This document shows positions 3,051 through 64,000 of a stretch of DNA of 64,000 nucleotides, one piece after another. Numbering within the stretch: the first letter of the stretch is position 1; each line of letters begins with the position of its first letter. The notes beneath the pieces are model-generated. The model saw only the letters and a list, made by a program, of their open reading frames with translations. It made no database searches and was not told the origin of the DNA. Origin of the DNA: a virus; IMG/VR virus record IMGVR_UViG_3300033145_000777, positions 17,183 to 81,182 of that record; one strand, written 5' to 3'. Made by a program: the position numbers and the translations under genes.

Positions 3051-3104
3051 TTTAGCCCATAAACTTTATATAAGTTTCTAGCATAGATAGTTTGACCCAA
3101 AATG
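3051..3104 (+). promoter_or_regulatory. Repeated promoter/start motif, copy 1 (type A)
   Basis: TTTAGCCCATAAACTTTATATAAG...TTTGACCCAAAATG; identical over 54 nt to the copy at 39087. Confidence 0.8.
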
Positions 3105-16115: not shown

Positions 16116-16883
16116 ATGGCGAGAGATCCCAAAGGTAGATTTGTTAAAGGTCATATTCCTTGGATCAAGGGTAGAAAGGCGTCTGAGGAAACTAAGCAGA
16201 AACTTGTTGAAAGCCACAAGGGGCAGGTTCCTTGGAATAAGGGTGTAACAGGCTATACTACTTCATGGAAGGGTCGGAAACATTCTGAAGAAACTAAGCA
16301 AATATTGAAAGAAACCCGTAAGAGGCAGATATTCACTGACGAAACTCGGAAGAAAATGAGTGACACGAAGAAAAGAATGGGGAATGAACCTTTACTGAAT
16401 CACATTAAAGAACACGGTTCATGGAATAAGGGCTTGACCAAGGAAACGGATGACCGGGTAAAAAAATACGGGGAGTCTCAGAAGGGTAAGGTCATTTCTG
16501 AGGAGACTAGGCAGAAAAATCGTGAGGCCAGAATGAAACAGCGACTACCCAAAAAAGATACCTCTATTGAACTTGCCTTACAAAGGGGACTTGATGTGGT
16601 AGGCATTAACTATGACACCCATCTTCCAGTCTGTGGTATATGTCAACCTGATATAGTTTTTCCTGAAATGAAACTCGCAGTTTTTGCTGATGGGGATTAC
16701 TGGCATAACCTTCCCGGAAAAAGAGAAAAAGACTTAAAACAAAACCAAGTTTTGAAGGAGAACGGCTGGACAGTTCTCCGTTTCTGGGGACGTGAGATAA
16801 ATTCTGATATAGAGGGTTGTGTTAATAAGATTAGGAAACATATAGGCTTTCTCATCAGGGTAGACAAGGACATGATGAAATGA
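16116..16883 (+). CDS. Free-standing homing endonuclease: NUMOD3-like repeats + Vsr/DUF559 nuclease
   Basis: HSEETKQ and PWNKG repeats; PDIVF...AVFADGDYWH...GWTVLRFW. Confidence 0.8.
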   Translation: MARDPKGRFVKGHIPWIKGRKASEETKQKLVESHKGQVPWNKGVTGYTTSWKGRKHSEETKQILKETRKRQIFTDETRKKMSDTKKRMGNEPLLNHIKEHGSWNKGLTKETDDRVKKYGESQKGKVISEETRQKNREARMKQRLPKKDTSIELALQRGLDVVGINYDTHLPVCGICQPDIVFPEMKLAVFADGDYWHNLPGKREKDLKQNQVLKENGWTVLRFWGREINSDIEGCVNKIRKHIGFLIRVDKDMMK

Positions 16884-37652: not shown

Positions 37653-38000
37653 GGAGGAATGAAAAATGCCTGAAATTGATCTTGGGTTCTGCCCACGATG
37701 TAAAAGCGATTGGCCGATGATGACAAGGGTTGTCTATGGTGTGAAGTTCTGTCACCTTTGTTCCTTTGAAGTGGAAGAGAATCGTCATGAGCGTGAACGA
37801 TGGGTACAGTGGGCTAAGGACTACGCAAAGGAGAAATGAAAATGGCTGACATAATTATTGATTATAAAGGAAACTGTCCCAACTGCGATAGGTCAGACTT
37901 TGAGGTTGTCGATGAGTTTGGAGAGGAACTTCAATGGATCAAATGTCGTTATTGTAGCGAACCCATTCACACTGAAAACGGAAAGATTGTGGAGGAATGA

Positions 38001-38210
38001 ATGATGCCGTCGCCAGCTCAGTTACGAAACAAAAGGATAAAGAAACTCGTAGAATATGGTAAGGAGTCAGGGCTCCTAGAAAATTGGGTGAACATCTATG
38101 ATAGCCTGTTCACGAAAGCGAAGAAGCTGTATCCGACAGTTGCAAGAAACACACTTCAGACGTATGCTAGAGCAGCGTACAGTATTCTTGAATCTGAACG
38201 AAACCCATAA
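38001..38210 (+). CDS. Small helical protein
   Basis: GGAGG RBS. Confidence 0.5.
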   Translation: MMPSPAQLRNKRIKKLVEYGKESGLLENWVNIYDSLFTKAKKLYPTVARNTLQTYARAAYSILESERNP

Positions 38211-38241
38211 TCTTAATTCCAACCATGACAAATAATAGATA

Positions 38242-38330
38242 GCCCGGTAGCAAAAGGGATTCTCCGTGTTTGCCATTTGGGTCACTACCGGGTGACTTCA
38301 ATTTGGGATCTAAATAACCGACCAACTTTT
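38242..38330 (+). ncRNA. Candidate small RNA with segments antisense to the promoter start motif
   Basis: CCCGGTAG/CTACCGGG stem; contains CCATTTGGGTCA and CAATTTGGGATC; ends in T-run. Confidence 0.3.
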
Positions 38331-38371
38331 GCCCATAAACTTTATATAAGTATTCTGTACAAGAAGGTATG
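38327..38371 (+). promoter_or_regulatory. Repeated promoter motif, copy 7 (type A), lacking the GACCCAAAATG element
   Basis: TTTTGCCCATAAACTTTATATAAG directly upstream of the structured region. Confidence 0.75.
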
Positions 38372-38990
38372 GAACCAAATAACCACCTGAAGGGGAAACC
38401 CCTCTCATGGATGGCTTGGTTCTGGGATGGAAACATCTCATAGGGCGAGCACATTCCTGAAAGTTCACCTCCTTAGGGAAGTCTTGGAAACATGGCAAAG
38501 ATGGAATTGAATTAATTAAGCTGATTGATTCTGCTCTTCCCTTCATACTCCCTATATGGGCTCCGAGTCGCTCAAAAAATGGGAAGGTGGTATCCCGCCT
38601 TCTCCGGTTAGAGCACCAGAACGCAAATGCTTCTGGAGGTCCACTCAAAGGTGCTAAAAGCATCCAAAACCTGAGAGTGAGAACGTCTAAGTCAGAATGG
38701 ATGCTGGCTTAGAAGGTGCATGAGGATTGCGAACCGTCTCCTCCTCGGGTGCCAATTCACGCTTCCTGCCAGAGGAATACCGACCAGCTTCGGCTGTTAG
38801 GGTAACTGGCATCTCCCCCTTGGTGGAATCGGGGGGAGATTTACTATCCAACAGGAATGGATACGGAGTCACGGGTGACTCTGTCTCAATGTGAGTAAAC
38901 AAAAAACCCAGTAGGGGTGGTTCCTGCCACTCCTACGAACTTTAATCTCCCCCAAGAGCGAGAAGAGGAACTCGGTAAAATACCTCATTA
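38371..38990 (+). ncRNA. Candidate large structured ncRNA (~620 nt)
   Basis: No + strand ORF of 60 aa or more; about ten hairpins including GAAA and UUCG tetraloops with many G-U pairs; own promoter; tRNA follows. Confidence 0.7.
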
Positions 38991-38992
38991 TT

Positions 38993-39077
38993 GTCCGGTT
39001 CGCCTAATCTGGTGGGGCAGTAGTCTTGAAAACTACTGAGCTTGCTCATACAGGTTCAAATCCTGTACCGGACGCCA
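38993..39077 (+). tRNA. tRNA-Ser(UGA)
   Basis: Acceptor GTCCGGT/ACCGGAC, discriminator G, encoded CCA; anticodon arm GTAGT-CTTGAAA-ACTAC; long variable arm; T arm ACAGG-TTCAAAT-CCTGT. Confidence 0.92.
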
Positions 39078-39086
39078 ACTTTTTAT

Positions 39087-39140
39087 TTTAGCCCATAAAC
39101 TTTATATAAGTTTCTAGCATAGATAGTTTGACCCAAAATG
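39087..39140 (+). promoter_or_regulatory. Repeated promoter/start motif, copy 8 (type A)
   Basis: Identical to 3051-3104. Confidence 0.85.
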
Positions 39141-63128: not shown

Positions 63129-63170
63129 ACAGTTTTTTAAACTATATCTTCCCTTTCCTTTTGATACGAT

Positions 63171-64000
63171 ATGAGTGATGTAGACGCGGGGAAGATTAAG
63201 CTTGTTTTCGTTGGTGGGCTAAAAGCACCAAAAGGCTACAACGAAGGCACAGTTTATCTCTTAGCTGCGAGGTGTGAAAACTTCGATTGGTTTGAAAAAG
63301 CACCAGATACAGCTGAGGAAGGAGAAATAGTCCCAGTTATAGGGAGAACAGCATCAGGTGCAGCAGCAATCGAAGGCGGAAGTGTATCCAGTGTCGTAAC
63401 AGATACGTCGATCCCATTCGAGTACGGCATCAAGGTAAAAATGAAGTTCATTGGTGGACTAAGAGCACCAGCACAAGTACTTGTTGACGGCGTCAAGGTC
63501 GCTGTTGGACAGGTATGTTTGATGCCTTTGAGGTATGGGAGGTTCCCTTGGTGGGAGCTCGTTGATCCATTGCCAAACTCATACAGGGTAGCACCTGCAC
63601 CAGTTGAGGAATCTGTTGTTGTGGTCGAGGGTGATCCGAGGAATCAAGGCATGTTTGCCAAATCGCTAGGCCAGCAAATGGGAGCAGAGGTCATCCAAGC
63701 TGATGAGGAGAAAGTCATGTCCAAAGACGCTGCGCCTGTCGAGCTTGAGGGCGATGAGAAGCGTGACTCTGTTGAGATAAGCCCTGAAAAGCTTCAGCAT
63801 GACTCTGAGCCAAGTCCATTGGAGACTGAGCAAGTTTCAGTTCCTGAGAACCCAGAGGAACCACTTGAAAGCCCTCACACGGTCAGTGCAAGGAAGAAGC
63901 TTCTGGATAGCAATATGGTTGATCTACGGAAGATCGCAAAATCACAGGACCTGTCCAATTACTCTAGCCTAAAGAAGACAGAGCTAGTAGAGGCAATCCT
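63171..64000 (+). CDS. Protein with C-terminal Rho-N/HeH-like domain, 3'-truncated
   Basis: Open to window end; ends DLRKIAKSQDLSNYSSLKKTELVEAI. Confidence 0.7.
   Translation, partial: MSDVDAGKIKLVFVGGLKAPKGYNEGTVYLLAARCENFDWFEKAPDTAEEGEIVPVIGRTASGAAAIEGGSVSSVVTDTSIPFEYGIKVKMKFIGGLRAPAQVLVDGVKVAVGQVCLMPLRYGRFPWWELVDPLPNSYRVAPAPVEESVVVVEGDPRNQGMFAKSLGQQMGAEVIQADEEKVMSKDAAPVELEGDEKRDSVEISPEKLQHDSEPSPLETEQVSVPENPEEPLESPHTVSARKKLLDSNMVDLRKIAKSQDLSNYSSLKKTELVEAI

Follow-up and report, generated by a model that had tools for sequence, protein, structure and literature searches.

Which kind of gene, if any, lies between a promoter at position 38332 and the serine tRNA gene at position 38993 of the window, the 64,000-nucleotide (nt) stretch of DNA analysed here? 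The window corresponds to bases 17183–81182 of an 81,182-bp virus record from IMG/VR. An earlier note, made from the letters of the window, had described this region as a highly structured non-coding RNA that has a promoter of its own and is co-transcribed with tRNA-Ser. According to our analysis, an RNA gene very probably occupies the stretch; its product would be tightly folded, about 620 bases long and continuous with tRNA-Ser. The stretch has the properties by which a virus-encoded gene for a large structured non-coding RNA is recognized, namely its own promoter, the lack of an open reading frame (ORF) and a strand-specific excess of structure. The elements of the unit are as follows.

38332–38351, + strand: promoter, an exact copy (20/20) of the 20-nt motif of this virus, with the TTTATATA box at 38341–38348
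38371–38992, + strand: candidate structured non-coding RNA of about 622 nt, without ORF, with a strand-specific folding excess and without an Rfam match
38993–39077, + strand: tRNA-Ser (anticodon UGA) with an encoded CCA end, found by ARAGORN and by Rfam (RF00005, 54 bits)
39080–39089, + strand: likely archaeal oligo-T terminator, TTTTT-A-TTTT, containing the first run of at least five T after the promoter and starting three bases past CCA
39092–39140, + strand: next promoter copy with the GACCCAAAATG leader of a gene for a protein of 137 amino acids (aa), the 3' border of the cassette

The tRNA gene thus adjoins the structured stretch, as the earlier note had claimed, and both programs confirm it.

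Coding capacity

Each of the three + strand frames contains several stop codons between the predicted start site and the tRNA. Codon usage was scored per codon, the median being 0.189 for real + strand ORFs and 0.057 for − strand (shadow) ORFs. The ORFs of the region score 0.006, 0.031, 0.007, −0.124 and −0.115, that is, at or under the shadow-ORF level. All five lack matches in Pfam (E ≤ 0.01) and PHROG. In a collection of 15 billion proteins, none of 10 region ORFs is present, and the flanking PCNA and 137-aa genes are. The view that the stretch is non-coding is supported by the stop codons in all + frames, by the lack of family matches and by the absence of the region ORFs from the protein collection.

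The region had also been called the longest stretch without a gene. This holds, with 927 nt (38211–39137), once a 55-aa ORF starting with TTG (38727–38894, codon score −0.12) is dismissed. On a naive ORF map it does not hold: what remains are gaps of 516 and 243 nt, both shorter than two that lie near the genome ends (670 and 643 nt).

Folding and strand specificity

Comparison with dinucleotide shuffles had been named beforehand as a check on the proposed RNA. A 633-nt stretch folds with a minimum free energy (MFE) of −232.2 kcal/mol (z −5.47, 20 shuffles), and the 622-nt RNA has z −4.79 on the + strand (110 shuffles), in agreement with the proposal. When MFE was regressed on G+C content (GC) across the whole genome, five of the 11 most stable GC-corrected 300-nt segments of the + strand, including the top one, fell at 38319–39119. 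The GC of the 622-nt RNA is 0.49 versus 0.44 for the genome.

Local z-scores were computed for 150-nt segments. They range from −0.8 to +1.7 over the upstream coding flank (37700–38374) and from −2.0 to +1.6 downstream of the tRNA. Inside the unit they reach −1.9 to −3.7, with the + strand always more negative than the − strand.

Uninterrupted hairpins were then counted, with G-U pairs allowed, loops of 3–12 nt and the expectation taken from the rest of the genome. The 622 nt contain six hairpins with stems of at least 9 bp versus 0.57 expected (Poisson P 3e-5), a density of 9.65 per kb in the RNA versus 0.99 per kb in the genome. No other 600-nt segment of the genome matches this count. The hairpins are distributed unequally between the strands, six on + versus one on − for stems of at least 9 bp and five versus none for stems of at least 10 bp. 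Genome-wide there is no + bias (80 hairpins on + versus 98 on −). The asymmetry arises because G-U pairs, which make up 17 of the 191 MFE pairs, become A-C on the other strand; the earlier note, too, had read G-U pairs as support for the + strand. Of all the observations, this strand specificity argues most strongly that RNA rather than double-stranded DNA is what folds.

Promoter, start site and borders of the cassette

The promoter-like motif has 10 copies in the genome and the core CCCATAAACTTTATATAAGT. At up to three mismatches, six copies were found in the window versus none expected. The 10 copies of the genome lie at window positions 3056, 23748, 28084, 34736, 38332, 39092, 39560, 42069 and 45819, with one more upstream of the window (at about −2656). 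Nine of the 10 are followed 17–19 nt later by GAC[CT][CT]AAA[AT]TG and then by an ORF, i.e. by the GACCCAAAATG leader and a start codon. The 38332 copy is the only one without this leader and start codon, exactly as the earlier note had it. By what is generally known of archaeal promoters, the motif is an archaeal-style TATA promoter driving almost leaderless mRNA. Because the distance from the motif to GACCC is fixed in the other copies, we infer that transcription starts at about 38369–38372, where the first helix has its base.

In archaea, T runs bring RNA polymerase to a halt. From 38332 to 39079 the + strand has no run of five or more T, and the run that follows the CCA end of the tRNA is the likely terminator listed above. 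Read on the − strand, the A6 runs at 38574 and 38901 are T6.

Cassettes between identical promoters could be swapped by recombination. An insertion precisely at the start site was considered and found to be an over-reading: a syntenic contig described below aligns equally well to the spacers of the 38332 and 23748 promoters (14/20 each). Short direct repeats around the cassette are estimated to be at chance level, or to be part of an extended promoter motif.

Predicted architecture

The following architecture is a prediction from a single sequence.

38371–38439, + strand: 5' domain, a helix GGAACCAA/UUGGUUCU around an AGGGG-AAA-CCCCU hairpin, then GGGAUG-GAAA-CAUCUC
38441–38562, + strand: AU-richer, loosely folded linker with a single 10-bp hairpin (local z −0.6 and +0.2)
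38509–38531, + strand: the AU-rich 10-bp hairpin of the linker (pairing probability 0.94)
38563–38975, + strand: 3' multi-branch domain of about 410 nt, with the MFE closing helix CCGAGU/ACUCGG (local z −1.9 to −3.7)
38581–38604, 38616–38636, 38686–38713, 38864–38883 and 38911–38936, + strand: hairpins of the 3' domain (pairing probability 0.88–1.00)
38785–38796, + strand: hairpin of the 3' domain with a UUCG loop (pairing probability 0.78)
38659–38705, + strand: candidate pseudoknot of AGCAUCCA (38659–38666) with the loop UGGAUGCU (38698–38705) of the 38686–38713 hairpin
38811–38953, + strand: alternative pairings of GGGGGAGAU(U) at 38831–38841 with 38811–38820 (local) or 38944–38953 (long-range), inverted repeats I6 and I8

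All ten helices that the earlier note had listed are found where it placed them; their arms are fully paired, with 6–9 of 7–10 pairs Watson-Crick and the rest G-U. Among them, the helices at 38423/38440, 38581/38604, 38686/38713, 38865/38882 and 38911/38936 have pairing probabilities of 0.88–1.00, and those at 38371/38423 and 38785/38796, 0.67–0.78. Several perfect stems are capped by GAAA or UUCG loops. Pairing probabilities in the 5' domain are 0.67, 0.79 and 0.99, and the local z is −3.6 on the + strand versus −1.9 on the − strand.

The closing helix CCGAGU/ACUCGG (38563/38975) has a pairing probability of only 0.33, and the long-range ATGAGG/CCTCAT helix, 0.31; a long-range closing helix is given here as a proposal. 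The candidate pseudoknot has 8/8 Watson-Crick pairs and a pairing probability of 0.00 from the nested folding program, which cannot score pseudoknots, and AGCAUCCA has an alternative partner in a small local hairpin. For GGGGGAGAU(U) the local pairing has probability 0.41 versus 0.53 for the long-range one. We propose both the pseudoknot and the alternative pairings as features that the RNA might adopt.

The hairpin at 38509–38531 holds an 8-nt palindrome, TTAATTAA, which could be a dimerization site or could merely be TATA-like.

Search for RNA families and homologues

At the gathering thresholds of Rfam 15, only the tRNA was found in the 64-kb window. When the region and its halves were compared with Rfam 15 at E up to 10, the only rows added were at chance level (rdlD with E 7.8, outside the RNA, and 5.8S with E 8.7 and 7.5 bits). 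The cmscan comparison with Rfam was another check named beforehand, and it gave no match to GOLLD, ROOL, RNase P, signal recognition particle (SRP) RNA or introns. The archaeal RNase P RNA model (RF00373) has no match in the virus genome; the same search was positive in 11 of 14 control genomes. SRP RNA, rRNA fragments, small ribozymes and all other Rfam 15 families gave no match above chance level. A group I or group II intron was rejected: there is no Rfam match, and the unit is flanked by a promoter on one side and by a complete, uninterrupted tRNA on the other.

Homologues of the RNA were searched for by several routes. With blastn, none was found in GenBank phages or plasmids. None was found in the viral contig collection via the flanking 137-aa and 69-aa proteins, and the record carrying a relative of the viral portal protein (L002, 36% identity) has no match to the RNA. 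The exact promoter 18-mer has four single matches in viral contigs; in two of these four records the RNA query gave chance matches of 19–22 nt (E 0.24 and 1.19). The 25-nt 3' end of the tRNA has no match in the viral collection. A degenerate pattern of promoter and leader has five matches in the window, none in viral contigs and one in genome contigs, in a cyanobacterium, which we take for chance. The pattern of a small hairpin upstream of the promoter (see below) has no match in viral collections. With the alignment of the 69-aa family, viral contigs yielded only L009, where the match is a repeat within a 1,555-aa ORF without a tRNA or RNA match, and metagenome contigs yielded only L010, the relative described in the next section.

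In PMC10690425, a large structured-RNA screen of IMG/VR demanded at least three matching regions; an RNA represented by a single sequence would therefore go unreported in that screen.

The syntenic relative

One syntenic relative was found, a JGI metagenome contig of 1,389 nt (L010). It encodes a homologue of the 69-aa protein (43% identity), whose gene precedes the RNA unit in the window, and has the same promoter motif and leader. Its promoter is followed by ACGACCCAAAATG and a protein ORF. Since the contig has a protein gene in that promoter slot, the RNA-tRNA unit behaves as an accessory, promoter-bounded cassette that is not fixed in this genome neighborhood. The comparison is one of synteny only, and the promoter spacer does not tell which promoter of the window is the counterpart.

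The contig also keeps, at 1190–1260, a small hairpin element that in the window separates the 69-aa gene from the RNA promoter (38229–38330). Its stem CCCGGYAG/CTRCCGGG is preserved by paired T-to-C and A-to-G changes, and its loop retains UUUGGGUCA, complementary to the GACCCAAA leader of viral mRNAs. Downstream of the element is a T run.

Interpretation and alternatives

On balance we favor the reading that the locus specifies a stand-alone structured non-coding RNA, co-transcribed with tRNA-Ser and released by RNase P, which would have a role connected with translation or tRNA supply, either as a structural RNA or in an RNA-protein particle. The start site, the co-transcription, the RNase P release and any function are put forward as a model. 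In it, the viral TATA promoter would start transcription at about 38371, and the polymerase would make the roughly 622-nt folded RNA and tRNA-Ser(UGA) as one precursor, ending at the T5 run after the CCA of the tRNA. Cleavage by host RNase P at the 5' end of the tRNA would also form the 3' end of the large RNA. The freed RNA would consist of the 5' hairpin domain, the loose linker and the multi-branch 3' domain of roughly 410 nt, and might serve as a scaffold or as an RNA-only or RNA-protein particle linked to the virus's translation or tRNA supply. UCA, the codon read by the viral tRNA-Ser(UGA), is the commonest serine codon of the virus (27% of serine codons in long ORFs), so that the tRNA looks useful to it.

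Several observations weigh against this reading. None of the collections scanned yielded a homologue of the RNA, and the syntenic contig contains no large RNA or tRNA within its 1,389 nt. The − strand of the 622-nt region also beats its shuffles (z −3.11, 110 shuffles), there is no local folding excess at about 38375–38600 (z −0.6 and +0.2), and the long-range helices have pairing probabilities of 0.2–0.35. On short ORFs the codon test has little power (the genuine 69-aa gene scores just 0.036), and the ATG at 38369 could open a leaderless 22-aa ORF that scores 0.165 per codon. Finally, the tRNA may have a separate weak promoter.

An antisense regulator was considered and rejected. Elsewhere in the genome, complementarity to the RNA extends over 14 nt at most (E 0.16), and judged by duplex energy, shuffled RNA pairs comparably well with eight mRNA leaders, with the small element upstream and with the tRNA (z −1.1 to +2.3).

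The alternative that survives best, although we hold it to be unlikely, is that the tRNA-Ser transcript simply has a long 5' leader or spacer here, or that the virus recently captured foreign DNA (e.g. host chromosome from beside a tRNA-Ser gene), well folded but without a viral role of its own. The absence of the cassette from the syntenic slot of the relative, its GC (0.49–0.535, above the flanks at about 0.43) and the lack of homologues in viral collections are in line with such an origin. Drifting DNA, however, is not expected to carry so strong and strand-specific an excess of structure, and a perfect 20/20 promoter copy precedes the cassette.

It is improbable that the transcript encodes small peptides, one or several, and is otherwise a long structured untranslated region; the candidates would be the 22-aa ORF at 38369–38437, which a stop codon follows, and the 55-aa TTG ORF at 38727–38894. 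The ATG at 38369 stands at the putative start site in a virus where leaderless mRNAs are the rule, and its ORF has the codon score of 0.165 given above. That start codon, however, lies within the first helix, and the peptide would explain just 69 of the 622 nt; the 55-aa ORF and a 41-aa ORF score −0.12 per codon and have no family matches.

Slightly less probable again is a DNA-level element rich in inverted repeats, for example an origin of replication or a site at which packaging or recombination takes place. The inverted repeats are dense, the − strand has z −3.1 as well, and the replication gene for PCNA is nearby. Yet the stems need G-U pairs, which are A-C on the other strand, and this is reflected in the hairpin counts (6 versus 1 at 9 bp or more, 5 versus 0 at 10 bp or more). 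Moreover, the region is GC-richer than the genome rather than AT-rich, and it has a promoter in front and a terminator behind.

A protein gene on the − strand (117-aa ORF at 38310–38663 or 95-aa ORF at 38167–38454) can practically be dismissed: these are the longest ORFs overlapping the region, but they score 0.006 and 0.031, under the − strand shadow-ORF median of 0.057, have no Pfam or PHROG match, are absent from the protein collection and cross the promoter, and by our reading of the ORF map + strand ORFs tile the window with each − strand ORF lying beneath one of them.

The virus and its genome

The record is classed as having direct terminal repeats, and an exact 114-bp repeat was located at the genome ends. 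Genes are tightly packed on the + strand, + strand ORFs of at least 45 aa covering 92% of the genome. According to Pfam, the virus encodes a phage-type portal and a tail tape-measure-like protein. Its other genes include a helicase with an intein, two radical-SAM proteins and a PCNA-type sliding clamp, the RNA region lying about 1.5 kb downstream of the PCNA gene. The virus is an archaeal-type tailed virus, and its host is probably an archaeon. The nearest named relatives of the portal are in metagenome-assembled genomes of Bathyarchaeia (about 38% identity), and the portal has 26.5% identity to that of the ANME-1 virus ANMV-1.

The lineage is barely represented in collections, and close relatives occur only on short ENA, Logan and JGI contigs. 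The portal has one relative in the viral contig collection (L002, mentioned above) and two at 73% identity on 4–5-kb ENA and Logan contigs. PCNA has a single far relative in the protein collection (25% identity), and for the 137-aa protein the one relative (80% identity) is carried by a 639-nt ENA contig. A representative library contains 16 matches to the 69-aa protein, the closest being P0126 (64% identity) on a JGI contig of 3,805 nt.

The 69-aa protein (window 38001–38210) belongs to a small conserved family (MPSPxQxRxxRI...). Its domain is also found in long tandem arrays, with 33 matched stretches in P0125 (4,625 aa) and 12 in P0127 (750 aa). A gene for a NUMOD3 and Vsr/DUF559-type endonuclease, of the free-standing homing-endonuclease type, lies at window 16116–16883, just ahead of an intein-containing tail gene. 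Two ORF-free stretches of 640–670 nt near the genome ends (63129–63798 and, outside the window, about −16949 to −16307) adjoin the 114-bp terminal repeat. Pfam searches with 40 proteins of the window, each of at least 100 aa, revealed no reverse transcriptase, TnpB, transposon nuclease, Cas-like protein or obvious RNA-binding partner.

Comparison with known systems

According to PMC12286853, GOLLD is carried by phages and prophages and is often close to tRNA islands; one member has a Met-tRNA upstream, and tRNAs are sometimes located in the GOLLD linker. There ROOL is described as a phage and prophage RNA found near tRNAs, with no known protein partner, and both GOLLD and ROOL form RNA-only cages of unknown function. 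The setting given in that source, a prokaryote virus or provirus and a location beside tRNA genes, is also found here, in an 81-kb viral record with tRNA-Ser directly downstream. ROOL, as portrayed there, is comparable to the candidate in being of similar size, tRNA-adjacent and viral (PMC12286853).

Like GOLLD, the candidate is a large, many-hairpin RNA of a prokaryote virus that is physically tied to tRNA genes. Unlike GOLLD, it comes from an archaeal-type virus, precedes its tRNA and, at about 620 nt, is shorter than many GOLLD members, which are over 800 nt; the Rfam model of GOLLD remains unmatched even at E up to 10. It differs from ROOL in the lack of an Rfam match, in the domain of the host and in its pseudoknot, which is predicted from a single sequence. 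Membership in GOLLD or ROOL was rejected because their covariance models fail to match. The interpretation given in the earlier note is supported in part: the stretch is non-coding, the structure is unusual and strand-specific, the promoter is the RNA's own and no Rfam family fits, and the likeness to GOLLD and ROOL, taken as an analogy, is one of layout only.

In the MALAT1-mascRNA system and in other long RNAs, RNase P produces the 3' end by cutting at a tRNA or tRNA-like fold that lies downstream. The proposed 3'-end formation of the candidate is similar, with RNase P cutting at the 5' side of the downstream tRNA fold. The MALAT1 system differs in being eukaryotic and in having a tRNA-like element and a triple-helix end, whereas the candidate precedes a genuine tRNA-Ser and its processing is a prediction.

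We know of no large tRNA-linked folded RNA from archaeal tailed viruses, and a full-text literature search for such RNAs found none. We tentatively suggest, as a possible but doubtful extension of the reading favored above, that with this RNA a so far undescribed class of large ornate RNAs is seen for the first time in archaeal tailed viruses, a counterpart of GOLLD and ROOL. Such an RNA would be made in one precursor with a viral tRNA, be freed by RNase P, act (alone or with protein) as a particle serving or protecting the translation supply of the virus, and move between viruses as a promoter-bounded cassette. The claim of a new class is provisional, coming from one sequence. The cassette is small, clearly bordered and can be made in vitro, so that its fold, oligomeric state and RNase P cleavage are directly testable. 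Should the candidate prove to be an archaeal counterpart of GOLLD and ROOL, the pairing of a large RNA with tRNA would recur across domains of life and would point to a general role in the viral use of the translation apparatus.

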